Positions 8,095 to 37,369 of a stretch of 64,000 nucleotides of DNA are shown here, piece after piece. The DNA comes from an uncultured Chloroflexia bacterium (lineage in GTDB: Bacteria > Chloroflexota > Limnocylindria > Limnocylindrales > CSP1-4). Positions within the stretch are counted from its first letter, which is position 1; each line of letters begins with the position of its first letter. A model generated the notes under the pieces. That model had not been told where the DNA came from. It did not search any database and saw only the letters and a program-made list of their open reading frames with translations. The stretch covers positions 320,001-384,000 of the forward strand of contig CAVVNQ010000003.1 of the NCBI GenBank assembly GCA_963749705.1, in the 5' to 3' direction. The position numbers and the translations under genes were made by a program.

Positions 8095-8122
8095 CGATCG
8101 GCGCGGCGAATCCGGGCGGGGA

Positions 8123-9133: not shown

Positions 9134-9807
9134 GTGCGATTCCTCCGAAGGAGCCGGTCGAGCAGGGAGCGACGGCGCGCGGGCGGCGGTGGCTCGATCT
9201 CGGGCTCGGTCACGGCCCACGGTCGGAGCGTGCCGAGCGGCTCGACGACGCGGGGCTCGGGCGCATGCGCTGGCTCGGGCTTGGACGGCGACGCAGGTTC
9301 GGGCGGCGGCTCCGGTTCGGGCTCAGGAGCCGGGCGAGCCGGGGGTTCGGGTTCATTCTCACGCACGGGCTCAGCCTCACGCACGGGCTCAGGCTCTGGC
9401 GCGGGTTGGGGAGCCGGCATGGGTTGGGGAGCCGGCACGGGCTCGGATACAGGCTGGCGCGCGGGCGCGGGTTGCGGCGGGGCGGACCTGGCGGGAGCCG
9501 GCGTGCTGGCGGGCACACCGGCAAGGTTGACGACGGATCCTCCCGGGCTGCCGCGGTAGGGAGTGAGCTCCTCGAGCCGGCGCACGAGCCGGTTCGCGGC
9601 GACGTTCTCGGGATCGATCTGCAGCGCCTGCCGGGCACGCCGGTAGGCCTCCGCGTCGTCCGAATGCTCGAGCGCGACGCGGGCGAGCCCGACGACGGCG
9701 ATCGAGTTGCGCGGGTCGGCGGCGATCGCCTGGCGGTACAGCCGCTCCGCCTGGTCCACGAGGCCAAGGGCCAGCGCCCGCTCGGCCTGCAGCAGCAGCT
9801 CGATCAT
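9130..9807 (-). CDS. TPR protein with a Pro/Glu-rich low-complexity tail
   Basis: Two TPR-like repeats (AERLYRQAIAADPRN; ARQALQIDPEN), then PEP/PAP repeats. Stop/start overlaps on both sides. Confidence 0.75.
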   Translation of the reverse strand: MIELLLQAERALALGLVDQAERLYRQAIAADPRNSIAVVGLARVALEHSDDAEAYRRARQALQIDPENVAANRLVRRLEELTPYRGSPGGSVVNLAGVPASTPAPARSAPPQPAPARQPVSEPVPAPQPMPAPQPAPEPEPVREAEPVRENEPEPPARPAPEPEPEPPPEPASPSKPEPAHAPEPRVVEPLGTLRPWAVTEPEIEPPPPARRRSLLDRLLRRNRT

Positions 9808-11183
9808 GCATCACCCATGTCGGCAAGCATGCCCTGTGCGAGCAGCATCAGCGTCGCGCGATCGTTGAGCGCTGGGTCCGCGATCACGTGCTCGACGAGC
9901 GCCTCGAGGATCCCGCCCAGCCTCGGGCCGGGTTGGAGGCCCAGCTCCCGCATCAGTTCGCTGCCGTCGACGGCGAGGGCGTGCCGATCGAGCACGACCC
10001 GGGCGGTGATCTCCGCGTCGATGCGCGCCCGGAACGCGGCAAGGCCGGGGTCGTCCGGGGGCACGCCGCTGCCGATGTCGTCCGCGTGGCGGAGGGCGAA
10101 CAGGGCATCGATGTTGTCGCGGCCGATGCGCTTGATGAACCGGCGGACCGCGTAGTCCGACGCCTCCGGGTCGACCGTGAACATGTGCTGCCGGACGAGG
10201 TGCACCACCTCGTCCATGGCCGCACGCGGCACCCGGAGCTTCCGGAGCAGGCCCTCCGCGAGCCGTGCGCCGACCGCGTCGTGGTGGTGGAAATGTCCGT
10301 CGGCGAGCGTGGCCGGCTTGCCGATGTCGTGGAGCAGTGCCGCGAGCCGGACGATCGGCCGGTCCGCGGGTGCGGCGTCGACGGCCCGCAGCGTGTGGTC
10401 CCAGAGATCCTCGCCGGGGATCTTGTTCTGGGGGATGCCGGGCTGCCTCGCGAGGTCGGGCGAGATGACCGTCAGCAGCCCCGTCTCGAGCAGGAGGCGA
10501 AGGCCGATCGACGGGACGGGGGCGACCAGCATCCGGCCCAGCTCGGCGCCCACGCGCTCGCCTGACAGGTGGGCGACGAGGCCGGCATTGGCCCGGATCG
10601 CCGTCAGCGTCGCGGGCTCCACCTCGAAGCCGAGCGACGCCGCGAGACGGACGGCCCGGACCATTCGCAGCGCATCCTCACGGAACCGTGCGTCGGGATC
10701 GCCGACGGCCCGGAGCATCCGGGCGGCCAGGTCCGATCGCCCTCCGAACGGGTCGACCAGTCGGTTCGGCCCCTCGTCCGCCGGGCCGCGGCCCCAGGCG
10801 AGCGCATTGACGGTGAAGTCGCGCCTGGCGAGGTCCACCTCGATGTCGTCCCCGAACTCCACCCGGTGCGGCCGCCGGAAGTCGGCGTAGTCGTGCTCGG
10901 TACGGAACGTCGTGATCTCGTACACGGCGTCGTCCCGGCGCACCGCGACGGTGCCGAACCGGTTCTCGTACACCGAGCCCGGGAACAGGGCGACGATCCG
11001 ATCCGGACGGGCATCCGTGGCCATGTCCCAGTCGGCGGGCTCGCGCCCCAGCAGCACGTCCCGCAGCGACCCTCCGACGACGTAGGCTGCGTACCCGGCC
11101 GCGTGCAGGTCCTCGATGATCCCGATGACCGCGGGCGGCATGACGCTCGCGAGCCGCTCGCCCGCGTCGTCCGGGGCGGTCAC
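9804..11183 (-). CDS. cca: CCA-adding tRNA nucleotidyltransferase / poly(A) polymerase family with HD domain
   Basis: VGGSLRDVLLG, DWD, DLARRDFTVNA, FREDALRMVRAVR and LLHDIGK motifs. Confidence 0.88.
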   Translation of the reverse strand: MTAPDDAGERLASVMPPAVIGIIEDLHAAGYAAYVVGGSLRDVLLGREPADWDMATDARPDRIVALFPGSVYENRFGTVAVRRDDAVYEITTFRTEHDYADFRRPHRVEFGDDIEVDLARRDFTVNALAWGRGPADEGPNRLVDPFGGRSDLAARMLRAVGDPDARFREDALRMVRAVRLAASLGFEVEPATLTAIRANAGLVAHLSGERVGAELGRMLVAPVPSIGLRLLLETGLLTVISPDLARQPGIPQNKIPGEDLWDHTLRAVDAAPADRPIVRLAALLHDIGKPATLADGHFHHHDAVGARLAEGLLRKLRVPRAAMDEVVHLVRQHMFTVDPEASDYAVRRFIKRIGRDNIDALFALRHADDIGSGVPPDDPGLAAFRARIDAEITARVVLDRHALAVDGSELMRELGLQPGPRLGGILEALVEHVIADPALNDRATLMLLAQGMLADMGDA

Positions 11184-11190
11184 CGGACCC

Positions 11191-11706
11191 TCAGCTTCGG
11201 CCGAGGAAGAGGTACGTCCGCCAGGCCTCGTTCCGATCGTCGTCGAGATACGGCGTGAACAGCGAGTAGAGGTCGCTGCGCGGCTCGAACGGCAGGCGCA
11301 CGAGCTTGAGCCTGGCCTCCTCAGGGGTTCGACCGCCCTTCCGGTGGTTGCAGGCCTTGCATGCCGCAACGAGGTTGTCCCACGAGTGAGCCCCGCCGCG
11401 ATGCCGGGGCATCACGTGATCCAGGGTCAGGTCGTGTGCCTGGCGACCGCAGTACTGGCAGGTGTGCCGGTCGCGCGAGAAGATCTCGCGCCGGGTCAGC
11501 TTGACCCTCGGTCTGGGCCGCCGGATGTGGTGCTGGAGCCGGATGACCGAGGGCGCCTTGTAGACCTCGCGCACCGTCCGGATCTCGGCATGGTTGTACT
11601 CGATGACCTCGGCCTTGAAGCCGAAGAGCAGCCGGAACGCCCGCGGGATGTTGCAGACGTTCAGCGGCTCGTAGTTCTGGTTCAGCACGAGCACGACGCC
11701 GTCCAT
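11191..11706 (-). CDS. HNH endonuclease (McrA/HNH_5 family)
   Basis: VLVLNQNYEPL, RDRHTCQYCG, LDHVMPR and CKACNHRKG motifs. Confidence 0.92.
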   Translation of the reverse strand: MDGVVLVLNQNYEPLNVCNIPRAFRLLFGFKAEVIEYNHAEIRTVREVYKAPSVIRLQHHIRRPRPRVKLTRREIFSRDRHTCQYCGRQAHDLTLDHVMPRHRGGAHSWDNLVAACKACNHRKGGRTPEEARLKLVRLPFEPRSDLYSLFTPYLDDDRNEAWRTYLFLGRS

Positions 11707-23937: not shown

Positions 23938-24279
23938 TCAGGCCGAGGCGGCCGCGAGCGCGGCGCTCTCGTCGTCGTGGATACCGATCGCCTCGTCAAG
24001 GCGTGTCAGGGCCAGGATCTGGCGGTAGTGGTCGGACAGCCCGATCGCGTGCAGCCGCTGTCCCGCGCGCTGCGCCCGGACAAGGAGCGTGACCAGGAGG
24101 CCGATGCCACCGCTGTTCATGTACTCGAGGTCGCCGAAGTCGAGGACGACCGAGCGGACACCGGACCCGGCCCGGCCGTAGGCGTCCATCAGCACCTCCT
24201 CGCTGGCGCCCGTGATCTCGCCGTGGATCCGCAGGATGGTCGCCGACCCCGCGGGCACGATGTCGATGGTGGTGCTCAT
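23938..24279 (-). CDS. STAS anti-sigma-factor antagonist (RsbV/SpoIIAA-like)
   Basis: LDFGDLEYMNSGGIGLLV with the phospho-acceptor Ser; YRQILALTRL. Confidence 0.9.
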   Translation of the reverse strand: MSTTIDIVPAGSATILRIHGEITGASEEVLMDAYGRAGSGVRSVVLDFGDLEYMNSGGIGLLVTLLVRAQRAGQRLHAIGLSDHYRQILALTRLDEAIGIHDDESAALAAASA

Positions 24280-24638
24280 CGAGCCGCCTCCTCAAGCTGG
24301 CCGGCCGCGGGCTCCGGGTCGGCGATGGTCAGGTAGTCCGAGAGCCGGGTGATCCGGAAGATCTCCCGGTAGTGGTCCGAGAGGCCGACCGCGATGACCT
24401 CGCGATGGTCGCGCCGCGCCTCGGCCAGGAGCCGGACGATGAGCGCGATGCCGGTCGAGTTGATGTAGTCCACGGTCCCGAAGTCGAGCACCAGGCGCGT
24501 GGCGCCGGCATCGACCGCCGCCCGATAGGCGCCGCTCAATGTCTCGTCGGCCGCGATGTCCACGTCGCCGCGCATCGCGAGGCGGACCTCCCCCGGGCTT
24601 GCCGCGATGACCTCGATGTCGAGTCGTTGCTTGTCCAT
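24276..24638 (-). CDS. STAS anti-sigma-factor antagonist (second copy)
   Basis: LDFGTVDYINSTGIALIV; YREIFRITRL. Confidence 0.9.
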   Translation of the reverse strand: MDKQRLDIEVIAASPGEVRLAMRGDVDIAADETLSGAYRAAVDAGATRLVLDFGTVDYINSTGIALIVRLLAEARRDHREVIAVGLSDHYREIFRITRLSDYLTIADPEPAAGQLEEAAR

Positions 24639-24653
24639 CGTGGTTCTCCCTCT

Positions 24654-26297
24654 TCAGCGCCCGTCCCGGGCGAGGGTGAGCGTGACCGTCTGCAGCCCAT
24701 CGGCGAAGTGCACGTCCATCCCGTCCACCATGTGGCGGATCAGGAACAGCCCCCAGCCACGCGGCTTCTGACGGCCCTCGAGCTTGGCATCGAGATCAGG
24801 CGCCTCGACATCGGGCACCGGACCGGACAGGGCGCGGTCGGTGACACGCACCCGGATCTCCCTGGCATCCGCGTCCACGCGGACGTCGACCGGGATGTCG
24901 GGGTTGCCCTGTGACCCGTACTCGATCGCGTTCATCACCGTCTCAGCGACCGCGGTCTTGAGCCGTTCCAGACGGCTCTCGGTGAGTCCGAGCGGTGCCA
25001 CGGCCTTGGCCACGCGCGTCATCGCGTCGCGCTCGTTGCCGATCGCACCCTCGATCGTGAACGCGATCAGGGCGTCGTCCGACGCGGTGGGCGCCGGTGC
25101 GTCATCGCGCGTCAGCTCGACCTCGGGGCGCACCTCGGACCAGCCGGCGGTGCCCGCGGAGCGCTGGAGAGCGACCAGCGTGATGTCGTCCTCCTGCTCG
25201 ATGACCGGACCCTGGAACTCCTTTAGCCCGACCAGCAGCCGGTCCAGCAGCTCGGTGCCGGCGTCGTCACCCTCCATCGCCTGGCGCAGACGAGGGAAGC
25301 CGTACATCTCGCGGTCCGGTCCGTGCTGCTCCACGACCCCGTCCGAGTAGAGGAGCATCCCCTCGCCCGGTCCGACGACGCCCTCGGCCTCCTCGTAGGT
25401 GATGTCCGGCATCAACCCCAGCGGCAGCCCGGTCGCCCGGAGCTCCGTGACGCCGCCCTCGGTTCGGACGTAGGGCAGGTTGTGACCGGCATTGGCGAAC
25501 CGGAAGCGGCCGACCGCTGGCTCCAGGACGCCATACAGGCAGGTCACGAACATCTTGGCCGGCATCTCGGGGACCAGCAGCTCGTTCGCACGAGCGAGCA
25601 CCTTGCCGGGGTCGACCAGGCGGGGGGCCTCGGCCCGGAGGATCGAGTGTGTCCGGGCCATGACGAGGGCGGCCGGGACGCCCTTGTCGGTGACGTCGCC
25701 GACGACGACACCGATACGGCCATCGCCGAGGTCGATGAAATCGTAGAAGTCGCCGCCGACGACCCGTGCCGGGCCGTAGTAGGCCGCGATCTGCCACTCC
25801 GGCAGGTTGGGCAGCTGGCGCGGCAGGAACTGCTGCTGGATGAGCTGCGCGACCTTGAGCTCCTGCTCGTAGCGCTCGCGCTCCGCGGCCTCGGCGGCCT
25901 GCTCGCGCACCAGCTGGGCGACGCGGATCGCGGGCGCTGCCTGCGCGGCGAGCGTCGCCAGGAGCCGGCGGTCATCCGTCGAGTAGTCCTGCTCGGAGAG
26001 GCGGGGCCCGAGGTTGAGGGTCCCGATGAGCTCGCCCTGGGTGACCAGCGGCACGACCAGCGCGACGCCGGCGTCGCGCAGCGCCTGGAGCGCCGGCGAC
26101 GCGAGCTCCAGCTTCGACAGATCGACCGGACCGGGCGCCGCCTGCAGGAACGCGAACAGCGGATCGGTCTCGGGGATGTCGATCGCCACGCCGGGCTGGT
26201 CGACCAGGGTCGGTGCCGCGGCGGCGGGCGCCGCCTCGTCGACCGCCTGGGCGTGTCCGCTGCGGAGACGGCGGAATGGACGGGTCAGGGCTGTCAT
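24654..26297 (-). CDS. Partial GAF + SpoIIE/RsbU PP2C phosphatase + RsbW-like HATPase domain
   Basis: VVPLVTQGELIGTLNL...LLATLAAQAA (GAF C-part); VGGDFYD, GDVTDKGVPAA, NAGH, LYSDGV and EDDIT (PP2C); AVAETVMNAIEYG and RGWGLFLI (HATPase_c). Alternative start at 26315. Confidence 0.9.
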   Translation of the reverse strand: MTALTRPFRRLRSGHAQAVDEAAPAAAAPTLVDQPGVAIDIPETDPLFAFLQAAPGPVDLSKLELASPALQALRDAGVALVVPLVTQGELIGTLNLGPRLSEQDYSTDDRRLLATLAAQAAPAIRVAQLVREQAAEAAERERYEQELKVAQLIQQQFLPRQLPNLPEWQIAAYYGPARVVGGDFYDFIDLGDGRIGVVVGDVTDKGVPAALVMARTHSILRAEAPRLVDPGKVLARANELLVPEMPAKMFVTCLYGVLEPAVGRFRFANAGHNLPYVRTEGGVTELRATGLPLGLMPDITYEEAEGVVGPGEGMLLYSDGVVEQHGPDREMYGFPRLRQAMEGDDAGTELLDRLLVGLKEFQGPVIEQEDDITLVALQRSAGTAGWSEVRPEVELTRDDAPAPTASDDALIAFTIEGAIGNERDAMTRVAKAVAPLGLTESRLERLKTAVAETVMNAIEYGSQGNPDIPVDVRVDADAREIRVRVTDRALSGPVPDVEAPDLDAKLEGRQKPRGWGLFLIRHMVDGMDVHFADGLQTVTLTLARDGR

Positions 26298-26395
26298 GGC
26301 CGCATCCTCATGCATGAACGTCCGGACATCGTTACGAACAACCGTGATTGTTCAACATCGTCACGCACCGCCGAGTCGTCAATGGTGAACGTCAC
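26294..26395 (-). CDS. Possible 33-aa coupling micro-ORF (VTFTIDDSAVRDDVEQSRLFVTMSGRSCMRMRP)
   Basis: GTG overlaps the sensor A stop (GTGA) and TGA overlaps the PP2C ATG (ATGA). It spans the operator, so it may be fortuitous. Confidence 0.25.
   Translation of the reverse strand: MTFTIDDSAVRDDVEQSRLFVTMSGRSCMRMRP
26319..26336 (-). promoter_or_regulatory. Heptamer direct-repeat operator, copy 1 (CGTAACG-atgt-CCGGACG)
   Basis: Followed 9 nt later by GAGGAT (-10-like), then 6 nt to the PP2C ATG. Matches copies 2 and 3. Confidence 0.65.
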
Positions 26396-27588
26396 TGCCC
26401 TGCCTCCTGCCGGCTGCGCAGCCACAGCCCCGCGTGGATCGGACGGACCGTCTCGTCGACGGTGGCCAGTGCCTCGCGCTCGATGGACGCCAGCCCGACC
26501 TCGTCCCGCAGACGCTCGGCAAAGGCATCGACGGTGCGCTGCCCGTCGTACCTGGCCCGGTCGAACCGGCGGTCGACCCCAGCCTGGATCCGCCGCCGCA
26601 AGGGCTGGAACAGCGCGAACGCGACCAGCGTGGACCCGGCGACCGCCAGCGTCTCGCCCTGGGTGAACCCCGCGAGCAGCGCCTGCAGGGCGAGCACCAG
26701 ACCTACGAACACCGCCGCCAGGATCCCGGTCACCAGCGCCCAGCCGATCGTGCGGCTGATGAGCCGGTCGATCTCGTACAGCCGGTACCGGAGGACCGCG
26801 ATGCCGATGGCGATGGGGAGGAAGGCGAAGGCGAGCATCAGCAGCGACCATGACCAGGTGTTCTGGAACATGGCGAGAACCAGCACCGACGCGGCGAGCA
26901 GGACGATCCCTGCCACGAACCACTTGAGCTGCTCGCGCTCGGCCCCAGCAGCCCTGCGGAACCGCATCACGACTGCGCCGACGGCGACCGCGAGCAGGAT
27001 CCCCATGGTGACCGTGGCCGCGCCCCCGATCAGCCTCAGAACGCCTTCATCCGAGCCTGTGGGGGTGACGAGGGCGACGGTTGTGATCGCGGCCACCACG
27101 CCCACGATCCGCCACCGAGGTCCTGGTAGCCGCCCATCCGGGAACAGGAGCGGGAGCCACACGGCCAGGAGTGGGTACGCGAGCCCCGAGAGCGTGGGCG
27201 CCAGCGAGTCAAGCAGCCGATATCCGGGAAGGGCTGGCCCAACGATCGTGCTTCGCTCCACGTAGGCTTCCGTGAAGTCCCCGAGAATCAGGCTCACCCC
27301 CCCGACCAGCAGGATCCAGCCGATCGGATTGCGCGGTCGAAGCACCACGAGGATCGCTCCGACGACGGGCAGGCTCAGAGAAGCCGCAACGGACGAGGCG
27401 ATGGCGATGAGGTCCGTCGCGTCCTGCGCGCCAATGGACAGCTGCTCGTGTCCCGGCAGGATGGCCGAGGCGAACATGAACCCCACCATGCCCAGGGCGA
27501 TGAGGAGCAGGGCGACCGCGAGCCAGGTGGTGGGCCGGCGTCGGGCGGGGACGGCAGGTTCGGGGCGGGTGACGCGGGCTGCCGTCAC
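26392..27588 (-). CDS. Membrane sensor paralog A (multi-TM, ends with a GAF N-terminal fragment, no output domain)
   Basis: RPRNPIGW, LFPDGRLPGPRWR, REQLKWF, LRYRLYEIDRLISRT, RRRIQAGVDRRFDR and terminal VRPIHAGLWLR. Confidence 0.85.
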   Translation of the reverse strand: MTAARVTRPEPAVPARRRPTTWLAVALLLIALGMVGFMFASAILPGHEQLSIGAQDATDLIAIASSVAASLSLPVVGAILVVLRPRNPIGWILLVGGVSLILGDFTEAYVERSTIVGPALPGYRLLDSLAPTLSGLAYPLLAVWLPLLFPDGRLPGPRWRIVGVVAAITTVALVTPTGSDEGVLRLIGGAATVTMGILLAVAVGAVVMRFRRAAGAEREQLKWFVAGIVLLAASVLVLAMFQNTWSWSLLMLAFAFLPIAIGIAVLRYRLYEIDRLISRTIGWALVTGILAAVFVGLVLALQALLAGFTQGETLAVAGSTLVAFALFQPLRRRIQAGVDRRFDRARYDGQRTVDAFAERLRDEVGLASIEREALATVDETVRPIHAGLWLRSRQEAGQ

Positions 27589-28802
27589 CGGCCCGCCCCC
27601 TGGCGCTCGCGCAGCCACAGCCCGACCGCGGCCGGACGCACGGCAGCGTCGACCGTGGCCGGGACCTCGGCCCGAATGGTCTCGAGATCGACCTGGTCGC
27701 GCAGCCGCTCGCTGAACGCCCCGACGAGCTGCTGCCCGTCGTACCGGGCCCGGTCGAACCGGCGGTCGACCCCAGCCTGGATCCGCCGCCGCAGGGGCTG
27801 GAACAGCGCGAACGCCGCCAGGGTGGACGCCGCCACCGCGAGCGTCTCGCCCTGGGTGACGCCAGCCAACAGCGCCTGCAGCCCGATCACCAGACCTACG
27901 AACACGGCCGCCAGGATCCCGGTCACCAGCGCCCAGCCGATGGTCCGGCTGATCAGCCGGTCGATGTCGTACAGCCGGTACCGCAGGATCGCGATGCCGA
28001 TGGCGATGGGGATCGCGATCATCCCGAGCATGAAGAGGTAGAAGGCCAGCTCATTGCCCGTCGCTCCGGCGATGGGGAGCACGATCGCCATGTAGCCGGC
28101 GGCCGCCAGGAACCACTTGAGCTGCTGGCGCTCGGGACCGCGGGATCGCCGGTAACGAACGATCACTGCCGCGATCGCCACGAGGATCCCGACGAGGAAG
28201 AAGACGCCCAGCGCCTTGAGGGCATCGGTCACGGGACCGTCGGCGGCAATCGGGTTGGGCAGGATCCCGTCGGTCGTCAGCGCCTCGACCGCGACCTGAC
28301 TGGCGGTACCGATGGCGGCCACCCAGGCGACAGGGCGCCAGTGCGAGCCTGGCAGGTGACCATCCGGGAACAACATGGGGACCCAGATCACGGCCAGCCC
28401 GACTGCAGCGGTGATCGACCAGGAAGCAACCCAGTCGACCAGGCGATAGCCGGGCAGGTCGGCACCCAGCCCGACGCTCCGACCGACATACTCCCAGGAG
28501 AAGACGTAGATGGAGAAGCCGAACCCGATCAGGAGGAACAGCCAGCCGATCGGGTTGGATGGCTGGCGAACGGCGAGGATCGCGCCAACGGCAGGCGACG
28601 TGAGGAGCACGCCCAGCACGACCGGGGCACTGACCGGCCCGAGCGGGTTGGTCTCGCCAGGTCGACCGGCCAGCTGCTCGGTACCTGGCAGGACCGCGAG
28701 GACGAACGCGAAGCACACCATTCCGACGGTGCTCGCCAGCAGGACGCCGGCAGCCCAGACCCCAGGCCGTCGCCACGTTGTCCCGGAGAGACCGCCGGTC
28801 AT
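27585..28802 (-). CDS. Membrane sensor paralog B
   Basis: Same motifs as A, ending VRPAAVGLWLRERQGAGR. Its stop overlaps the GTG of A. Confidence 0.85.
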   Translation of the reverse strand: MTGGLSGTTWRRPGVWAAGVLLASTVGMVCFAFVLAVLPGTEQLAGRPGETNPLGPVSAPVVLGVLLTSPAVGAILAVRQPSNPIGWLFLLIGFGFSIYVFSWEYVGRSVGLGADLPGYRLVDWVASWSITAAVGLAVIWVPMLFPDGHLPGSHWRPVAWVAAIGTASQVAVEALTTDGILPNPIAADGPVTDALKALGVFFLVGILVAIAAVIVRYRRSRGPERQQLKWFLAAAGYMAIVLPIAGATGNELAFYLFMLGMIAIPIAIGIAILRYRLYDIDRLISRTIGWALVTGILAAVFVGLVIGLQALLAGVTQGETLAVAASTLAAFALFQPLRRRIQAGVDRRFDRARYDGQQLVGAFSERLRDQVDLETIRAEVPATVDAAVRPAAVGLWLRERQGAGR

Positions 28803-28864
28803 CGTCGGCTGCGGTTGAGCGGCTGCTTCGGCTGGCGCGCCACAGGCGCCTCGTTCATCGGCAT
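28799..28864 (-). CDS. 21-aa leader micro-ORF (MPMNEAPVARQPKQPLNRSRR)
   Basis: AGGAGG SD 7 nt before the ATG; TGA overlaps the ATG of paralog B (ATGA). Confidence 0.5.
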   Translation of the reverse strand: MPMNEAPVARQPKQPLNRSRR

Positions 28865-28951
28865 CGGTGGACCTCCTGCGCGGATGCCGCGCGCATCGCC
28901 TGGACACCCATGGTCGGCCGCCATCGCAACCCCTGACCTCGCTGGGGGCAC

Positions 28952-28986
28952 GCCCGGGCCCTCATGTTCCTCAGGAGGGCCCGGGC
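28952..28986 (-). terminator. GC-rich hairpin downstream of the secreted-protein gene
   Basis: GCCCGGGCCCTC-N11-GAGGGCCCGGGC, a 12-bp inverted repeat with no U-tract. Confidence 0.45.
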
Positions 28987-29013
28987 CGTTCCCTATCGCG
29001 GGCGAGAGGTGAC

Positions 29014-29433
29014 CTACACGTGAGTGCCGAGAGCCGCCGTGTAGATCTGGACCGCCGCGGGGAACCAGTCGCCGAGATGGTCGACCCCCTTGCCGTCAGC
29101 GGCGTGCTTGTCCATGGCCGGCGTGCCTTCGGCAATGGTGTGGTTACCGATGAAGATCGAGAACTCGTTCGGCATACCCGCCGCCCTCGCCTCGCCGACA
29201 GCCCACGCGAGCTGGCTGTCCGACAGGGGTGGAAGGCCGGTCTCGTCGGCCAGGAGCCCAAACAGCTCAGACAGGCTCCCGATGTAGACCCACGCACGCG
29301 AGTGGGTGCCTGCCGTCACGGTGCCAGTATCCGACCGGCTGGCGATGAAGCACTCGTGTCCGAGCGCGGTTCCGGCGCCGAGGGTGGCGATCAGCGTTCC
29401 GGCGAGGATCGAGCGGGCGAGAATGCGACGCAT
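29014..29433 (-). CDS. Small secreted hypothetical protein (139 aa)
   Basis: GGAGG RBS; signal peptide MRRILARSILAGTLIATLGAGTALG|HECF; C-terminal DGKGVDH. Confidence 0.75.
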   Translation of the reverse strand: MRRILARSILAGTLIATLGAGTALGHECFIASRSDTGTVTAGTHSRAWVYIGSLSELFGLLADETGLPPLSDSQLAWAVGEARAAGMPNEFSIFIGNHTIAEGTPAMDKHAADGKGVDHLGDWFPAAVQIYTAALGTHV

Positions 29434-29496
29434 CGGTGGCCTCCAGCTGCGGCAGCTCCAGGGGGCGGGCTGCGTAGCCAGAGTCAACCGGTCGCG

Positions 29497-29514
29497 CGTC
29501 CCGAAATCGTTACG
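29497..29514 (-). promoter_or_regulatory. Heptamer direct-repeat operator, copy 2 (CGTAACG-attt-CGGGACG)
   Basis: Upstream of the secreted-protein gene; TTGACT 9 nt downstream. Confidence 0.65.
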
Positions 29515-29571
29515 GAGGCCAGGATCTTGGGTTGCGCATCGCGGACCGCTTGAGGCGCTAGACGCGACGAA

Positions 29572-30786
29572 TCATGAGGCGCCTCCGCCGGAATGCCGGA
29601 TCCAGACCGACGCTCCGCTCGGTCCCAGGGACCGGACGATGGCCGCGATGGCACCTTCGGTGACCTCGTTCAGGTCGGTGACGCCCTGGAGATGCGCTGC
29701 AAAGCCGCCGACCGTCTGCTCCGCGTCGTACCGACTGCGGTTGAAGCGACGGTCGACGGCGGCCTGGATCCGCCGGCGTGCCGGCTGGAACAGGGCGGCG
29801 GCCGCCAGCGTCGAGGCGGCGACCGCGAGGCTGCTCTCGCTGGTCACCGGGGCGAGCAACGCCTGGAGGGTAACGATCAGCCCGGCGAACAGCGCCCCGA
29901 TGAGGCCGGTCGTGAGCGCCCAGCCGACAGTTCGGCTGACGATCCGGTCGATGTCCCACAGGTGGTAGCGGAGGATCGCGATCCCGATCGCGATGGGCAG
30001 CAGCGGCAGCATCGCCAGTCCCAGAGCCCAGGCGGCGTCCGAGATCGGCCCGTTGTTCGGGAGCGAGATCACGAACGTCACCACGGCGACGCTCGCGACG
30101 AGGCCAAACCATTTGAGCTGCTGGCGCTCGACAGCCGCCGCCTGCCGGTAGCGCAGGAACACACTGATCACCGCGCCTCCGAAGAAGACCGGCGTGGCGA
30201 GGTTGGAGACCAGGGTGACGATCGCGAGCACGTCGGTCGCTCCCGCGATCCCGAGCGGGTTCCGGATCCAGGGTGTGCTCGACAGTGGTCCGGGCGTGAA
30301 CGCCACGGCCAAGGTCCCAAGGATGCCGACCAGGCCGATCCGGCCGAATGCGCGCCAGCGCGGCCCCAGGAAGCGACCGGTCGGAAACAGCAGCGGAAGG
30401 TAGACCAGGAGCATCCCGATCGCGGGCAGGAAGGTCCAGCTCGACAGCCAGGCGATCGGGACCACCAGCGGCAGCCCCGCCGCGAGGTCATGGTCGTAGT
30501 TCACGTACGTGCCGCCGAAGATCCCGATCGCTGCCGCCAGCCCGGACAGCTCGAGCAGCCAGCCAACCGGATTGCCGACCCGGTACGCCACGAAGCCGCC
30601 GACCAGCGTGAGCGAGAGCACGATCGCCGGGAAGATCACGATGAATACAGGCCCGGTCGGCCCGTATTGGTCGAGCGTCGCGATCCCCAGCGGGATCCCC
30701 ACGGCAGTGAACGCAACGGCCACCGCCGCGATCGCCGAGATGATCGCCAGCCGCACTCGCGAGCGGCGCCGACTCCGGATCATCAT
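29572..30786 (-). CDS. Membrane sensor paralog C
   Basis: GNPVGW, LFPTGRFLGPRWR, PWIRNPLGI, RQQLKWF, LRYHLWDIDRIVSRT; ends LGPSGASVWIRHSGGGAS. Confidence 0.85.
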   Translation of the reverse strand: MMIRSRRRSRVRLAIISAIAAVAVAFTAVGIPLGIATLDQYGPTGPVFIVIFPAIVLSLTLVGGFVAYRVGNPVGWLLELSGLAAAIGIFGGTYVNYDHDLAAGLPLVVPIAWLSSWTFLPAIGMLLVYLPLLFPTGRFLGPRWRAFGRIGLVGILGTLAVAFTPGPLSSTPWIRNPLGIAGATDVLAIVTLVSNLATPVFFGGAVISVFLRYRQAAAVERQQLKWFGLVASVAVVTFVISLPNNGPISDAAWALGLAMLPLLPIAIGIAILRYHLWDIDRIVSRTVGWALTTGLIGALFAGLIVTLQALLAPVTSESSLAVAASTLAAAALFQPARRRIQAAVDRRFNRSRYDAEQTVGGFAAHLQGVTDLNEVTEGAIAAIVRSLGPSGASVWIRHSGGGAS

Positions 30787-30878
30787 CGCGCGCGACCTCG
30801 GATCCAGACCGTGCTGAACGCGGGCTGCACGGCGGGGACCGCACACGTGCCGGTGGCGAGTGCCCGGGCCTGCGTCAT
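30783..30878 (-). CDS. 31-aa micro-ORF carrying the sensor C-terminal motif (MTQARALATGTCAVPAVQPAFSTVWIRGRAR)
   Basis: ATGA overlaps at both ends; VQPxxxxVWIR matches the sensor termini. Confidence 0.55.
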   Translation of the reverse strand: MTQARALATGTCAVPAVQPAFSTVWIRGRAR

Positions 30879-32101
30879 CGCGCGATCCCGCCATGACGCG
30901 TCCAGACGCCCACCGACCGGGGCTGCATCGAGCGCGCCACGACGGCCTCCAGGTGCTCGTTGAGGGCCTCGAGCGCCGCGTCGTCGCGCAGCCCGGCCGC
31001 AAAGCCGTCGAGGACACGCTGGGCATCGACATGCGCCCGATTGAACCGCCGGTCGACCGCCGTCTGTACGCCGCGCCGCAACGGTTGGAACACGGCGAAG
31101 GCGACGAGGGTCGCTGAGGCGACGGCGATCGTGCTCTGCCCCGTCAGCCGGCTCAGCAGCACCTGGATGCCAACGACCGTCACCGCGAACAGGACCGCGA
31201 GGACGGCGCTGATGATCAGGTAGCTGATCGTGCGGCTGACGATCCGGTCGATGTCCCAAAGCCGGTAGCGGAGCACCGCGACGCCGGCCGAGATCGGGAT
31301 CCCCAGGATGCCAGCCGTGACCACGTCCTGGGTGAGCTTGTCACCGCCCGGTGGGAGGACGCCGAGCTTGCCCAGCGGGATGACCCAGAACACCAGACCG
31401 CAGACGGCGACGCTGAAGGCAAGCCACTTGAGCTGCTGACGGCTCTCCCCCGTCGCCCGGCGGAATCGAAGCACGAGGGCGCTGGCGCCGATGAAGATGG
31501 CGACGATGAGCGGCATGTAGGCAATCCAGCGCAGCTCGGGTCGGATGCCGATGTCGATGGCGAAGGGGTTGGACAGATAGGCGGCGTTGTCGAGTGGTCC
31601 CGGCAGCAAGGCGGCACCCAGTGTCGCGAGAGCCACGATCGCGACGTCGAGCCCCATGACCAGCCGCCAACGCGAGCTCAGCAGGCGGCCGTCCGGGAAC
31701 ACCAGCGGCAGGAACACGGTCACCAGCGCGATGGCTGGGATCCAGATCCAGCCGGAGACCCAGGCTGCGACCTCCCCTCCCGCATGGGCGCCCGGCTCGG
31801 CGATGAGGGCCAGCGTCGCGTACTGATCGCAGGCGCCCTCCACGGCCGACAGGATGCCGGCGGCCAGGAACAGCCACCCGATCGGGTTTCCCCGTACGCG
31901 GATCACGACGATGGCCCCAATCGCAACGCAGGTGACCGCGATCGCGATCGGAAATCCGCGGACCGACCACGTGCCTGGGACCTCCACCGACCACGTGTTG
32001 GCGAGCAGGCCGATGGCGATCGCGGACAGCGCGCCCGTGAATACGACGCTGGCCGCAGCGAGCAACCGGGACGGGGCGACGCTCGCCGCCGTGACGGTCA
32101 C
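30875..32101 (-). CDS. Membrane sensor paralog D
   Basis: GNPIGW, VFPDGRLLSSRWR, RQQLKWL, LRYRLWDIDRIVSRT; ends MQPRSVGVWTRHGGIAR. Confidence 0.85.
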   Translation of the reverse strand: MTVTAASVAPSRLLAAASVVFTGALSAIAIGLLANTWSVEVPGTWSVRGFPIAIAVTCVAIGAIVVIRVRGNPIGWLFLAAGILSAVEGACDQYATLALIAEPGAHAGGEVAAWVSGWIWIPAIALVTVFLPLVFPDGRLLSSRWRLVMGLDVAIVALATLGAALLPGPLDNAAYLSNPFAIDIGIRPELRWIAYMPLIVAIFIGASALVLRFRRATGESRQQLKWLAFSVAVCGLVFWVIPLGKLGVLPPGGDKLTQDVVTAGILGIPISAGVAVLRYRLWDIDRIVSRTISYLIISAVLAVLFAVTVVGIQVLLSRLTGQSTIAVASATLVAFAVFQPLRRGVQTAVDRRFNRAHVDAQRVLDGFAAGLRDDAALEALNEHLEAVVARSMQPRSVGVWTRHGGIAR

Positions 32102-32238
32102 GGAGTGCCCTGGCCGGGTCGAAGCCAGAGCGCCACGCCCGGACCTTCAGCCGGCCGGCGCAGCATCTGTGCAGCATCGTCGACCAGCCACGGGACCACG
32201 TGGCGACGGCCGGGCACTTGTTGCGGGGACGCGGTCAT
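32098..32238 (-). CDS. 46-aa micro-ORF with the sensor C-terminal motif (MTASPQQVPGRRHVVPWLVDDAAQMLRRPAEGPGVALWLRPGQGTP)
   Basis: ATG 8 nt after the GAGCAT -10 (leaderless geometry); TGA overlaps the GTG of paralog D; ends VALWLR. Confidence 0.55.
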   Translation of the reverse strand: MTASPQQVPGRRHVVPWLVDDAAQMLRRPAEGPGVALWLRPGQGTP

Positions 32239-32261
32239 GGCACCGGATGCTCGGATGACAC

Positions 32262-32279
32262 CGTTCCCGAAACGTTACG
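32262..32279 (-). promoter_or_regulatory. Heptamer direct-repeat operator, copy 3 (CGTAACG-tttc-GGGAACG)
   Basis: In the divergent promoter region between the sensor array and the SARP regulator; GAGCAT 9 nt downstream. Confidence 0.65.
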
Positions 32280-32310
32280 AGATTCCTCGAAAACAAGCTA
32301 CCGTGACGCG

Positions 32311-35218
32311 ATGTCCAGAGAGGTGACTGTGCCACCCGCCCCTCCCGCCCCGGACACCGGGCTCGAGATCCGCGTGCTCGGGCCGCTCGAGGTCCGGGTG
32401 GCCGGCGCGCCGCTCGTCGTGGATACGCGCAAGGCGCTCGCGATCCTCACCCTGCTCGCCGCCGAAGGTCGGCCATTCGCGCGCGAGGAGCTGGCGGCGA
32501 TGCTGTGGCCCGAGTCGGACGACGAATCGGCGCGCGGCGCGCTGCGACGGACGCTGTCCGTGCTCCGCGGGGCCCTCGGAGACCGCTGGATCCGGGTTGA
32601 TCGGTCCACGGTCGCCCTCGACCCGTCGGGAACCTGGGTCGACCTGTCGGCCGTGGAGGCCGCGGGCCCCGAAGCGTCAGGGCCCGCGCTGCGGGAGGCG
32701 GCCGCCGCCGCCAGGGGTCCCTTCCTCGCGGGGTTCGCACTGCGCGACAGCGCTGCGTTCGACGACTGGCGGGCAACGCGGGCGGTCGCGGCGGAGCGAG
32801 CCGTTGCCGGCGTGCTCGATCGGCTCGCGGCGACCGCGGAGGCGGAGGGGGACATCCCGGCCGCCGTCGCCGCCGCAGCACGCCGTGTAGATCTCGATCC
32901 GCTCGACGAGCCTGCGCAGCAACGCCTGATGCGGCTCCTTGCCCGCTCGGGTGACCGGGCGGGCGCAATCCGTCAGTACCGCTCGTGCGTCGCCGTGCTG
33001 GAGCGGGAGCTCGGCGTCTCCCCGCTGGCGGAGACCACGGAGCTGTACGAGGCGATCCGTGACGATCGACCCTCGGCCGCGACCTCGCCGGACGCGCCTG
33101 ACGCACCGACGGCGGCATCGGCTCGACACGGAGATCGCACCCCACCCGTCCCCATCCGGTTGCCACTGGTCGGGCGCGATCGCGATCTGCGTGCCCTCGC
33201 GGATGCCCACCGCGCAGCGGGCATCGACGGGCGCGTCGCCTACGTCACCGGCGAGGCGGGGATCGGGAAGTCGCGCCTCGCCGAGAGCGTTCGCGCCAGC
33301 GTGAACGCGGCTGGCGGCACGGCGCTCATGGCGCGCTCGTTCGCGTCGGAGGCCGGCATCGCCTACGGGCTCATCGTGGAGCTGCTGCGCGTCGGGCTCG
33401 CACGTCCGGACGCCGTCGACCGGCTGCGGGACCTGCCGGACGCCACCGTCGTGGAGCTCGAGCGCCTCGTGCCCATGCCCGCCGATCTGTCGCGCCGCCG
33501 GCCGGTCCGGGAGGTCCGCGCCGGGACCGATGACGGACCGGCAGCGCGGGTCCGCCTGCTGGAAGCCGTCGCAAGCGCCCTCGTTGCGCTCGTGGCCGGA
33601 CCGGTGCCGGGGCTGATCACGGCGGAGGACCTCCAGTGGGCGGACGATGCGTCGCGCGAGTCGCTCACGTGGCTGGGTCGCCGGCTGGCGGGTCGCCCGC
33701 TCCTGCTCGTCCTCACCTGGCGCCCGGAGGATCTCGATGAGCTTGGCAGCGCCTTCGTGGCCACGATCGAGACCCTCCCGGAGGCCGCGCCGATCGCCCT
33801 TCGCCGACTCGAACGCGAGGACGTCGAGCAGCTCGTGGCGGCGGCATCCGTCGCGGGCCAGTCGCCAATGGCCGTCGACGCCCTGCTCCAGGAGAGCGAG
33901 GGCCTGCCCCTGTACGTGGTCGAGGCGCTTGCGACGGGGACCGGCCTCATCGAGGGACCGGCGCGGAGCGTCCGCACGCTGCTCCGGGAACGGCTCGCCT
34001 CGGTCAGCGAGACGGCCGGGCAGGTGCTGTCTGCGGCCGCGGTCATCGGCCGCTCGTTCGACCTGCCCCTCGTGCGGGGAACGAGCGGTCGCTCCGATGA
34101 CGAGACCGTGACGGCGCTCGAGGAGCTGGTGCGGCGCGGCATTGTCCGCGACGTTCCGGCGGCGCCGGAGGTTGCCTTCGACTTCGTCCACGCCAAGCTT
34201 CGCGACGCCGCCTACGAGGCGACCAGCCTCGCCCGCCGCCGGCTGCTCCATCGCCGGACGGCTGAGCTCCTCAGGCTCGATGTCGCGGGCCGTGACGACC
34301 CCGCCCGAATGGTCCAGGTGGCGACCCACGAGCGTGCGGCGGGCCGCGAGGCGGAGGCTGCGGAGGCGTTCCGCCAGGCCGGGGTGCGCGCCCGGGCGCT
34401 GTTCGCGAATCGCGAGGCAGCCTCGCATCTCGAGACGGCGATCGCGCTGGGACATCCGGACGGAGCCGCGATCCAGATCCTGCTGGGCGAGGTCCGGACC
34501 GCCCTGGGCGACTACACCGGGGCCATCGCCGCGCTCGAGGCCGCTGCCGCGGCGGCCTCGGACGACGACCTTCCGGGGGTCGAGCTTCGGCTCGGGAGGG
34601 TGCACGCGCGCCGGGGCGACCTCGCGACCGCGGCCAGCCACCTTGACGCGGCGGTCGCGACGCTCGAGCTCGGGGAGACGGCTGCCGGCTCCCGGGTCCT
34701 CGTGCGGGCGCTGGTCGAGCGGGCGGTGGTGGCGCATCGTGCGGGTGAGCTCGACCTCGCCCAGCTGGCGGCCGCTCGCGCGCTCGGCATCGCGCAGGCC
34801 GCCAACGACGATCCGGGCGCCGGTGCGGCCCATCGGCTCCTGGGGCTCATCGCCCGCGAGACGGGTGACCTGGACGCCGCCCGCGCGTCCCTCGAGCAGA
34901 GTCTCGACGCTGGCAGCCACCGATCCGGACGCCGGGGCGGCGATCGCGGCCCGCAACGCACTGGCCCTCGTGGAGGCAGCCGCCGGCGACAGGGCGGCCG
35001 CGATGGCGCTTCTCGAGGAAGCCCTCGTCGAATGCCGGCGGACCGGCGAGCGCCACCTTGAAGCCGCGGTTGAGAACAGCCTCGCGGACCAGCTGCACGC
35101 GTTGGGCCGGATCGACGAATCGATGGCCCACCTCAAGCAGGCGGTGGCGATCTTCGCCGAGGTCGGAGGGAATCCCGGTGAGCTTGAGCCGGAGATCTGG
35201 AAGCTCGTCGCCTGGTAG
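32311..35218 (+). pseudogene. SARP/BTAD + STAND AAA ATPase + TPR transcriptional activator, interrupted by a +1 frameshift near 34906
   Basis: IRVLGPLEV, REELAAMLWP, GPFLAG, DPLDEPA, GEAGIGKSRL, EDLQWAD and TPRs. The C-terminus (…EPEIWKLVAW) continues in the +1 frame after AGT CTC G ACG CTG. This could be an assembly error. Confidence 0.8.
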
Positions 35219-35243
35219 GCGCGATCGACGTCGCCGTTGGCGG

Positions 35244-35696
35244 TTACGAGCCCAGGGACCCCCGATCGAACCAGATCCGCTCGCCGCGGAACAGCCGAGT
35301 GGCCGGATCCCATGGGAACAGGATCAGCACACCCAGGCTGACCGGCAGCCCTGAGGCGGGAACCCCGGCCCACGGTCCGAGGTTCGTACCCGTGAGCTCG
35401 GCCGCTTCGAACACGCCCTGCGGCCCGACCACGATGTCGGTCAACCCGAACCGGTTGTCCGGGAACGCGGCGAACAGCTCGGTGTAGAACGCCCGCGCCC
35501 CCTCGTGGCCCTCCCAGCGCTGGCCGGTCGGCACGATCTCGTACACGCAGTTCGGCGCGAGCGTTGCGATCAGCCCGTCGATGTCCCGTCCGTCCTCGGC
35601 GATCGAGTGCCGGATCCACAGGCGCTTGATGGCGCGCAGCTCCAGCGGGTCGAACCGCCGGGCGAGGCGGGACCGGACGCTCCCCTCGGCAGTCAC
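35244..35696 (-). CDS. SnoaL-like ester cyclase / NTF2-fold protein
   Basis: HSIAED, FYTELFAAFPD, LTGTNLGPWAGVPASG and GERIWFD motifs. Confidence 0.8.
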   Translation of the reverse strand: MTAEGSVRSRLARRFDPLELRAIKRLWIRHSIAEDGRDIDGLIATLAPNCVYEIVPTGQRWEGHEGARAFYTELFAAFPDNRFGLTDIVVGPQGVFEAAELTGTNLGPWAGVPASGLPVSLGVLILFPWDPATRLFRGERIWFDRGSLGS

Positions 35697-35990
35697 TCAG
35701 CGATCCTCGCGGACCACGCTCAGCCCGCGCGCGTGGGCAAGCGCGAGCACGTACGACGCCGCGCCGACCGCGGGGTCGCTCTCGCGATCCGGCGGCTCGT
35801 CGCCGTCGTCCGCGCGGTCCGGCGCACCCAGCAGCCGGAGTGTTCCGCCGTCGGCGGCCAGCCGGTCAAGGATCCGCTCCAGGTCCTCATTGCCGACCGC
35901 CACGAACCGCGAGCCGACGTCGACGGTGATCGAGGCGTCGGCGTCAACGAAGATCGTGAGATCAGCGGCGCGGGCGTCTCCGATCCCCAT
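35697..35990 (-). CDS. Hypothetical protein (97 aa)
   Basis: Fills the gap between tldE and the SnoaL gene in the same orientation. Confidence 0.45.
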   Translation of the reverse strand: MGIGDARAADLTIFVDADASITVDVGSRFVAVGNEDLERILDRLAADGGTLRLLGAPDRADDGDEPPDRESDPAVGAASYVLALAHARGLSVVREDR

Positions 35991-35998
35991 CCGGCGAT

Positions 35999-37369
35999 CT
36001 AGCCCTCGGCCGTCGCGCCGGTGAACGAGAACGACGACAGCCGGAGCGAGGGCACGACGCTCCCGCCCAGGAAGCCACGCAGGCACCGGCGCTCGCGTCC
36101 CACGGCCTCCACGTTGGCCAGGGCGTCGAGGTACGACATCGTGTAGCGCAGGTTGCGGACGGCGCCGACGACCTTGCCGTCCTCGACCAGGAACGTCCCG
36201 TCGCGCGTCATCCCGGTGATCACGACGCGCTTGGGGTGGACCGGGTTGGTGTAGTGGAACCGGGTCACCAGCAGGCCCCGCTCGAGCCCGCCCACGAGGT
36301 CGTCGTAGGTGGTGTCCCCCGCGGCCATCACCATGTTGGTGGGGAACGGGCCGTACGGGTTCGGCGCGGGCAGCCCATGACCCGTCGACGCCCGCCCGGC
36401 GCGCGCGGCGGTCTGCTGGTCGAACGCCAGGTCGCGGCAGGCGCCCGCATCGAGCAGCGCGAGCCGCTGCTTGGGCACGCCCTCGGCATCGAACCCGGCC
36501 GGCAGGCCGGCCGGGTCGCGACCGTCGTCGACGATCGTCACCAGCGTCGATGCGACCTGCTTGCCCGCCTCGAAGAACGACCGGTCCTCCTGGACGGCGA
36601 GGGCGGAGAGCCCCAGGTACCCGACCATGTCCAGCAGGTCGACGACGGCGTAGTGGTGCAGCACGACCGGATAGTCGCCGGGTGCGAGCGCCACTGGATT
36701 GGCGCTGGCCGTCGCGCGCTCGGCGGCCTCGCGCCCGATCGCGGCGGCATCGATGACCGTCGCGTCGACCGAGCACTGCTCCGCGTATCCGGTGCCGTTG
36801 TCGGGGCCCATGGTCACCGTGAGCAGCTGCGAGCTGGTCCGACGCTCCGCGGCCCGGATCCCGTGCGAGTTGGCGACCGCGATCGCCTCCACGTCGGTCG
36901 AGAACGAGCCGTACGCCGTGACGCCGGCCGCGTCCGCGGCCGCGATGACCGCCCGGGCTCCATCAGCGCGGAGCTCGGGCGTGGCGCCTGCCGTGCCGTC
37001 GGACCAGGCGATCTCGACCGGTGCCACGGTTCCGCCGTCGGGCAGCCCGGCCCAGTCCTCGAGCTCTTCAACATTGGCCGCGATCGCCGTGGCCCGCTCG
37101 ACCAGGGCGCGCAGCCCCTCGGCGTCCGTTCGACCCGTCGAGGCCACCCCCACCCGACGGCCGCTCACGAAGCGCAGGTTGACCAGGACCTCGTCGCTGG
37201 CGACGTTCTGGTGGATCTCCGAGTTGGCAAACCGGGTGAGTGCGGATTCGCCGGACACGACGAGCGCCTCGGCCTCGGTCGCGCCGGCCTTCGAGGCCAG
37301 GTCGACCACGAGCTCCGCGAGCCGCAGTGCCTCGGTCGGATCGCCGCCGATGCCGTGCCTGTCGCTCAT
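35999..37369 (-). CDS. pmbA: TldE/PmbA family protein
   Basis: TRFANSEIHQN, FDAEGVP, STGHG and TGMTRDGTF motifs; ATGA-coupled to tldD. Confidence 0.88.
   Translation of the reverse strand: MSDRHGIGGDPTEALRLAELVVDLASKAGATEAEALVVSGESALTRFANSEIHQNVASDEVLVNLRFVSGRRVGVASTGRTDAEGLRALVERATAIAANVEELEDWAGLPDGGTVAPVEIAWSDGTAGATPELRADGARAVIAAADAAGVTAYGSFSTDVEAIAVANSHGIRAAERRTSSQLLTVTMGPDNGTGYAEQCSVDATVIDAAAIGREAAERATASANPVALAPGDYPVVLHHYAVVDLLDMVGYLGLSALAVQEDRSFFEAGKQVASTLVTIVDDGRDPAGLPAGFDAEGVPKQRLALLDAGACRDLAFDQQTAARAGRASTGHGLPAPNPYGPFPTNMVMAAGDTTYDDLVGGLERGLLVTRFHYTNPVHPKRVVITGMTRDGTFLVEDGKVVGAVRNLRYTMSYLDALANVEAVGRERRCLRGFLGGSVVPSLRLSSFSFTGATAEG

Follow-up and report, generated by a model that had tools for sequence, protein, structure and literature searches.

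The window considered here, a stretch of 64,000 nucleotides (nt) from an uncultured Chloroflexia bacterium (contig CAVVNQ010000003.1, positions 320,001 to 384,000), contains on its minus strand an array of genes for membrane sensors upstream of a gene for a PP2C (SpoIIE) phosphatase. Two very short open reading frames (ORFs) of 46 and 31 codons, here called micro46 and micro31, are linked to genes of this array by stop/start overlaps and end in the W-x-R motif of the sensors. By comparison with related genomes, both are well shown to be deletion scars of full-length sensor genes. Probably, they are in-frame remnants from a fast-turnover array of alternative membrane modules for one split GAF-PP2C protein, persisting as frames for a ribosome relay. 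The initial annotation had proposed that these ORFs might be decoy or GAF-completing peptides, scars of deleted sensors that keep translational coupling, or a sign that the motif acts in translation termination or reinitiation. The second proposal is borne out with respect to the scars, as full sensors or longer intermediates are found in both slots of relatives; that coupling has been kept is what we infer from the arrangement of the remnants. The part of the array with the two micro-ORFs is laid out as follows, where G000 is the window's genome, other G numbers are related genomes, and V and Y are sensors of the relatives:

32098..32238 (-), micro46, a 46-codon remnant ORF heading the array (ORF list, overlap chain)
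32098..32101 (-), GTGA stop/start overlap of micro46 and s4, with the TGA of micro46 on the GTG of s4
30875..32101 (-), sensor s4, a membrane module of 408 amino acids (aa) with a W-T-R ending (profile match 7-408)
30875-30878 (-), ATGA overlap of s4 and micro31, with the TGA of s4 on the ATG of micro31
30783..30878 (-), micro31, a 31-codon chimeric remnant ORF with an ATGA overlap at either end
30835..30878 (-), 5' part of micro31, homologous to the beginning of sensor V over ~15 codons (collinear in blastn with G020 7352-7518 and G061 8029-8201)
30783..30830 (-), 3' part of micro31, end of sensor Y (16 codons and stop; blastn, blastp)
about 30830-30835 (-), deletion junction of micro31
30783-30786 (-), ATGA overlap of micro31 and s3, with the TGA of micro31 on the ATG of s3
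29572..30786 (-), sensor s3, 404 aa, whose ATG overlaps the stop of micro31

The 46-aa ORF and the ATG-initiated 31-aa ORF are present with the peptide ends originally quoted for them, and so are the ATGA and GTGA joins to their neighbours; micro31 is the 3' part of a 158-aa ORF initiated by TTG. The common ending ascribed to sensors and micro-ORFs, P-x(2-5)-[VL]-W-[LIT]-R-x(4-7)-stop, was counted in a six-frame set of stop-to-stop ORFs (25 aa or longer) from the whole 3.6-Mb genome, which consists of 22 contigs (the G+C content of the window is 72%). Seven of 52,053 ORFs match, namely five full-length sensors and the two micro-ORFs, with no unrelated ORF. Since only sensor-derived ORFs match the pattern, the shared ending is not a matter of chance. 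The alignment of the micro-ORF DNA with the 3' ends of the four window sensors is uninformative, and the homology is clear only through relatives. Contigs from public DNA runs cover both micro-ORFs: record 29 of X4 corresponds to 30704-30898 with one difference, and records of X1, X2 and X3 correspond to parts of 32117-32394 with none, no indels being listed. A low-depth difference in such contigs, 30854 T>C, would alter codon 9 of micro31. All four runs are from one study, possibly including the source sample, and therefore support the assembly only.

Matches to the sensors were found in 15 of 41 sampled genomes, all in the window's genus, and none in 16 sampled genomes of another genus, which belongs to a second family. 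A second search, in 70 genomes of the window's genus, found s4-like genes in 13 (E<=1e-100). Ten loci were compared, that of G000 and nine syntenic loci from relatives, and every one of them has a regulator gene, an array of 2 to 6 full sensors and a PP2C gene. The s4 orthologues of G009, G016, G020 and G061 are 83-85% identical. The four window sensors show 36-54% identity to s1 and match no Pfam family, and nothing in Pfam is matched by the micro-ORFs either. Six further arrays were examined, with a gain of one new tail remnant (G015, not chained).

From these alignments, micro31 is shown to be a chimera, in which the start of V (ATG on the s4 stop) is fused in frame to the end of Y (TGA on the s3 ATG), which makes both of its ATGA overlaps inherited ones. 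G000 and G020 are collinear to 45 nt past the s4 stop, where a jump of ~1,239 base pairs (bp) follows, after which G000 resumes at the last 45 nt of the intact G020 sensor Y, ending VQPAFSTVWIRGGAR, and continues with the s3 orthologue. The same split is seen against G061, where ~1,970 bp are missing (the 281-aa sensor V plus Y), and against G084, where ~1,195 bp are missing; in G085 and G010 the Y tail alone matches micro31. The blastn matches of the 3' part lie at G020 8758-8948, G061 10172-10422, G085 9644-9691 and G010 7317-7363, and the slot of micro31 is occupied in relatives by 1.2-2.0 kb of intact sensor gene. Sensor V is a truncated 281-aa gene overlapping the s4 stop in G061 and a 35-aa ORF remnant in G020. 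Full-length Y precedes the s3 orthologue in G020, G061, G084 and G010, and also in G085, where one more sensor separates the two. Of the last 15 residues of micro31, 14 (93%) agree with the C-termini of Y in G085 and G020 (blastp, E=1e-10), and VQPAFSTVWIR, an 11-residue segment ahead of the variable end, is the same as in intact Y.

The same comparison shows that micro46 joins the conserved first start codon of the array to the ~14 terminal codons of a sensor that has been lost, with the TGA on the s4 GTG. Its start context, GCCATGACCGCGTCCC, is conserved in G016, G020, G001, G065 and G085, and this head ATG opens full-length first sensors in G001 (434 aa) and G065 (406 aa), which begin with MTASP like micro46. 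Its end, ...GVALWLRPGQGTP, is orthologous to remnants located directly 5' of the s4 orthologue (pattern ...VALWLR.G.G..), of 53 aa in G061, 114 aa in G009 and 101 aa in G016. In the 114-aa and 101-aa remnants, N-terminal membrane segments are still joined to a tail of 35-45 aa, and the remnants of G000, G061, G009 and G016 have one common GTGA end junction. Only the final 44-56 nt of micro46 (~14 codons) share their phase with the orthologues; further 5', the DNA is similar in shifted phases, with indels whose lengths are not divisible by three. Its similarity to intact sensor tails is weak (E=0.02; 2.1 bits), and a parent gene for its middle part was sought and none identified. Remnants at the head of the array are similar in length, 46 aa in G000, 53 in G061 (L006), 55 in G016 (L002) and 54 in G020 (L003), with unrelated middles; internal remnants are 16 to 281 aa long. 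As to the question, raised by the initial annotation, of whether full sensors take these slots elsewhere, the relatives contain intact Y, V (281 aa) and first sensors (G001, G065). The same micro-ORFs in both slots of close relatives lacking intact V, Y or first sensor were looked for, and this possibility is contradicted.

The tails left in such remnants appear to have decayed. When the last 32 aa are scored on the sensor profile, the median of 16 remnants is 12.0 bits versus 25.0 for 39 intact sensors (P=3e-7), with 2.1 bits for micro46 and 10.6 for micro31. The G+C content at third codon positions (GC3) is 0.72 in micro46 and 0.81 in micro31, versus 0.86-0.89 in sensors. Low tail scores and lower GC3 fit decay, except in the stretch adjoining the next start codon. 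W-x-R is lost from three remnants whose ORF and overlaps are kept, being W-L-C in the head ORF of G016, W-L-P in the 35-aa ORF of G020 and L-V-R in the 27-aa ORF of G016. Purifying selection on the micro46 peptide was not found, the phase being shared over the last 44-56 nt only, and constraint on micro31 could be sought in 16 codons only, there being no orthologous remnant with the same junction.

The remnants are embedded in continuous series of overlapping ORFs. Unbroken chains from the head ATG run 46-408-31-404 aa in G000, 55-411-101-408-27-417-396 in G016, 54-393-422-35-408-17-75 in G020 and 53-408-281-408-411-44 aa in G061, and every remnant of these four genomes is within its chain; the other six loci have similar chains. 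Among the 29 sensor-to-sensor junctions of the ten loci, 25 are chained by -4/-1 overlaps, 14 directly and 11 via remnant ORFs, and other genes intervene in three of the four broken ones. A start codon lying on the upstream stop is in frame with 10 of 13 tail remnants, these being the recognizable ones 3' of a sensor or of another remnant, while random deletion would be expected to leave 1/3 in frame (binomial P=0.0016). Upstream of 48 chain starts, predicted pairing with the 3' end of 16S rRNA averages -7.03 kcal/mol; 8,333 background positions from the same arrays average -3.07 kcal/mol (P=4.9e-18 by a Mann-Whitney test), and -6 kcal/mol or lower is reached at 56% of chain starts versus 10% of background positions. 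The codons for the 4-7 residues that follow W-x-R make up such a Shine-Dalgarno-like sequence ahead of the next cistron. The s3 start behind micro31 has a predicted pairing of -6.6 kcal/mol.

That remnants are usually in frame with four-nucleotide overlaps at both ends (10/13) suggests selection for coupling and not for peptides. Ribosomes would load at the head ATG of the array and pass from cistron to cistron by termination-reinitiation at the NTGA junctions. If so, a deletion would be tolerated mainly when the upstream start stays in frame with the downstream stop, and the remnant peptides would probably be by-products. Remnants may thus be kept open as relay ORFs for termination-reinitiation, a proposal with moderate statistical support. 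Termination-reinitiation at ATGA/TGATG overlaps has been described in E. coli, where removal of the Shine-Dalgarno motif substantially reduced reinitiation in four of the five gene pairs tested (Huber et al., 2019; PMC6728339).

Several observations weigh against a relay. Behind micro46, the s4 start has a weak predicted pairing (-4.3 kcal/mol). By composition, ~64% of TGA stops are preceded by A, G or T and so give an overlapping start, and the overlaps alone therefore mean little. When the frames of the spacers are randomized, 2/3 of frames are still continuous, through a bridge or an N-terminal extension, and 11 of 12 bridged spacers is significant only at P=0.039; about half of 1-2-nt deletions keep continuity because the next sensor gains an N-terminal extension. 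Remnants at one slot may share one deletion, and if they are collapsed, ~7 in frame versus 3 not remain (P ~0.02 by our own calculation). There are also exceptions to chaining: the best-preserved tail fragment of G010 (5804-5974) is out of frame with its bridging ORF, one spacer of G085 is broken, a tail remnant of G015 lacks an overlapping start, and 6 of 10 sensor-to-PP2C junctions are not chained. As for the identity of VQPAFSTVWIR to Y, it is explained by a recent deletion, and selection on the peptide would explain it too.

On these grounds, the micro-ORFs might be neutral debris, scars with no present role that are open only because stops are rare at 72% G+C and the deletions are recent, with s4 and s3 initiating by themselves. 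We consider this rather unlikely. The chance of a stop is ~1.7% per codon at this composition, by our own estimate, and hence 31-46 codons would often be open; besides the modest frame-perturbation P and the imperfect chaining just described, the tails decay, and the Y-derived codons of micro31 hardly differ from intact Y, which a young deletion would predict. On the other hand, neutral deletion does not readily account for the excess of in-frame tail remnants over the expected 1/3. Remnants in the same slot with different breakpoints (114 aa in G009, 101 in G016, 53 in G061 and 46 in G000) nevertheless share the GTGA end, and remnants in which the motif is destroyed (27 aa in G016, 35 aa in G020) retain both overlaps.

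The phosphatase gene, the remaining parts of the array and its surroundings are as follows:

29014..29487 (-), orf157, an unrelated 157-aa ORF between s3 and s2
27585..28907 (-), sensor s2
26392..27588 (-), sensor s1, from a GTG overlapping the s2 stop (junction 8414 to 8434, direct)
26294..26395 (-), third bridge ORF, 33 codons, with its GTG on the s1 stop and its TGA on the conserved PP2C start
24654..26297 (-), PP2C (SpoIIE) phosphatase gene, encoding the C-terminal half of a GAF domain and HATPase_c_2, with the conserved start MTALTRPFRR
32273..32283 (-), conserved promoter/operator-like motif, 34 nt 5' of the micro46 ATG
32312..35061 (+), divergent gene for a BTAD-AAA-TPR (AfsR/SARP-like) regulator

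The order of transcription on the minus strand is micro46, s4, micro31, s3, orf157, s2, s1, the 33-codon ORF and the PP2C gene. The PP2C protein matches positions 64-133 only of the 133 positions of the GAF profile. P0066, a fused homologue, matches PF01590 over profile positions 1-132 from residue 376 onwards, where the counterparts of the sensor tail, a helix and a strand, are located. From these two matches, W-x-R is placed in the region of the first β-strand of a GAF domain whose parts are, by profile comparison, divided between the sensors and the downstream PP2C. W-x-R lies within the last 20 residues in 38 of 39 full-length sensors of the ten loci, a median of 6 residues before the stop, and the micro-ORFs retain the strand part of the GAF segment only. 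In longer database proteins, the same membrane module is joined to GAF and SpoIIE domains, to GAF and histidine-kinase domains or to adenylate cyclase. Single-polypeptide proteins such as P0066 and P0020 resemble the present system in having the membrane module, the tail segment and the GAF-SpoIIE output, whereas the protein of the window is split after the first GAF strand, so that four alternative N-terminal modules and two remnants are accompanied by one phosphatase gene. In G020 (L003, 8856-10796), a sensor tail fragment, ...AVRPAGVSVWLRK..., is in one open frame with the PP2C gene and represents a natural re-fusion; the database proteins P0020 and P0017 have a tail-PP2C join of the same kind.

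The micro-ORFs could accordingly be imagined to encode functional micro-proteins, tail peptides that dock on the incomplete GAF domain of PP2C as soluble strand donors, decoys or constitutive inputs. If this were true, micro-ORFs with a sensor tail, in G000 as well as at least eight related genomes, would be translated into short peptides supplying the missing first GAF strand of PP2C, and remnants of dead sensors would be soluble competitors or constitutive inputs setting the baseline of the phosphatase under interchangeable membrane modules. The sensor tail does equal the helix and strand with which a GAF domain begins, the other half of this domain being in PP2C; the in-frame fusions in G020, P0020 and P0017 indicate that the phosphatase can carry a tail that lacks its membrane part, four genomes have head ORFs of similar length (46-55 aa), and W-x-R is kept in 14 of the 16 remnants listed, though their detection leaned on that similarity. 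However, micro46 has ~14 homologous codons, an upstream part that is out of phase and a tail of 2.1 bits against a median of 25.0; micro31 has 16 tail codons only and has lost the helix; three remnants with frame and overlaps intact have another residue in place of the invariant W or R; and no further such micro-ORFs exist elsewhere in the six-frame ORF set of the G000 genome. A predicted co-fold of micro46 with PP2C residues 7-145 scored 0.27 against a mark of 0.34, without controls, and counts neither way. The decoy or GAF-completing peptides of the initial annotation are thus left unsupported, with few in-phase codons in micro46, decayed remnant tails and loss of W-x-R from some remnants, and we regard them as quite improbable.

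Least probable is that the W-x-R codons themselves signal in cis, by way of the nascent peptide or the mRNA, for translation to terminate or reinitiate. The motif stands close to the end of intact sensors (38 of 39, at a median distance of 6 residues from the stop), within ~30 nt of the next start codon, but the same segment is internal in the fused homologues with no stop nearby, remnants without W or R keep their overlaps, and the Shine-Dalgarno-like signal maps to the codons after W-x-R, the x(4-7) stretch coinciding with the Shine-Dalgarno-like sequence for the next cistron.

For the proposed relay, the head of the array would be the entry point. Shine-Dalgarno-like pairing is absent at the micro46 ATG (-3.0 kcal/mol versus the background mean of -3.07), as it is at the orthologous head ATG of five relatives, with values from +0.7 to -3.8 kcal/mol in the six genomes. 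A hexamer, nAnnnT, lies 6-9 nt 5' of the head start in 7/7 aligned relatives, 8-9 nt before ATG in six and 6 nt before GTG in G061, and is -10-like when judged against the -10 consensus. The head ATG may be compatible with leaderless or Shine-Dalgarno-independent initiation. The initial annotation had described a leaderless-start geometry for micro46 behind a third operator copy; the conserved motif 34 nt 5', the missing pairing and the hexamer would be compatible with it, but a sigma-70 promoter scan of 26200-32400 found no site. Rfam has no match in 24000-36000 at E<=1, and a terminator scan found one site, elsewhere in the region. Three copies of a CGTAACG motif, each followed by a T-rich and a GGAC-like sequence, are located at 32273-32283 (-), within 29488-29571 (-) and within 26297-26391 (-), ~25-35 nt 5' of the starts of micro46, orf157 and the PP2C gene, the latter two in the s3-orf157 and s1-PP2C spacers; the 33-codon bridge ORF contains one copy. 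The CGTAACG motif also precedes an internal tail-bearing head ORF in G015 (L010). The three copies are probably the operator copies of the initial annotation, and their role as promoters or binding sites is putative. The ATGs of the regulator gene (32312, +) and micro46 (32238, -) are 73 nt apart (32239-32311), and an ACGGTA element adjoining the regulator start is conserved in 7/7 aligned relatives.

As a short first ORF between a promoter region and the first full-length gene, micro46 resembles leader peptides and attenuator uORFs (upstream ORFs). It differs from attenuators in lacking a conserved peptide, a run of regulatory codons and a terminator/antiterminator structure, and the sequence of the head ORF differs completely between genomes beyond the first 4-5 codons.

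Some further features of the arrays can be described. The overlap chain between s3 and s2 is interrupted by orf157, which has no Pfam match and is followed on its 3' side, in the orf157-s2 spacer, by a G+C-rich palindrome; orf157 is 94% identical in G009, far above the other neighbours of s3 and s4, and is absent from the other eight loci. The chain of G000 halts at a 5-codon ORF (MIRRV; 29557-29574, -), which starts on the s3 stop (ATGA) and ends with TAG. In the 33-codon ORF at 26294-26395, which the initial annotation had not listed, the seemingly conserved peptide FVTMSGRS coincides with the DNA motif, and this ORF has counterparts in G084 and G010. In L013 (G018), and at 9062-11527 and 16793-17906 of L010 (G015), several sensors are divided among two to four reading frames that follow one another in profile order; either frameshifted pseudogenes or indel errors of the assembly could account for them.

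The remnants are comparable to the pseudogene fragments of tandem paralogue arrays evolving by birth and death, in their homology to the ends of paralogues, the presence of intact copies in relatives and their decay. They differ from ordinary pseudogene fragments in that they are mostly in-frame fusions of the start of a deleted gene to its own stop or that of a neighbour, and hence stay complete ORFs with stop/start overlaps on both sides. The overlaps of 4 or 1 nt and the Shine-Dalgarno-like motifs inside the upstream ORF are shared with the coupled pairs of Huber et al. (2019; PMC6728339); the pairs described there encode functional proteins, whereas some links of the present chains are remnants of 16-114 codons, and coupling is predicted. 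In the comEB-comEC pair of Bacillus subtilis, as described in a preprint (bioRxiv 10.1101/2020.12.30.424838), the upstream ORF must be translated and its product is dispensable, and there, too, an ORF matters because its translation allows the next gene to be expressed; the case described is a full-length gene in a single pair, whereas here a deletion remnant stands in a chain. Among the titles listed by literature searches, there was no paper on gene remnants kept as coupling bridges, which is not proof of absence.

Two apparent orphan micro-proteins can now be dropped from the list of candidates, their shared motif and overlaps having been inherited from deleted genes. With 2 to 6 alternative membrane modules among ten syntenic loci of one genus, the split sensor-GAF-PP2C system constitutes a natural experiment in modular signal input. 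Gene loss in a long overlap-coupled operon is suggested to leave in-frame mini-ORFs and not arbitrary debris, and such mini-ORFs can thus mark past gene content and dependence on a ribosome relay.

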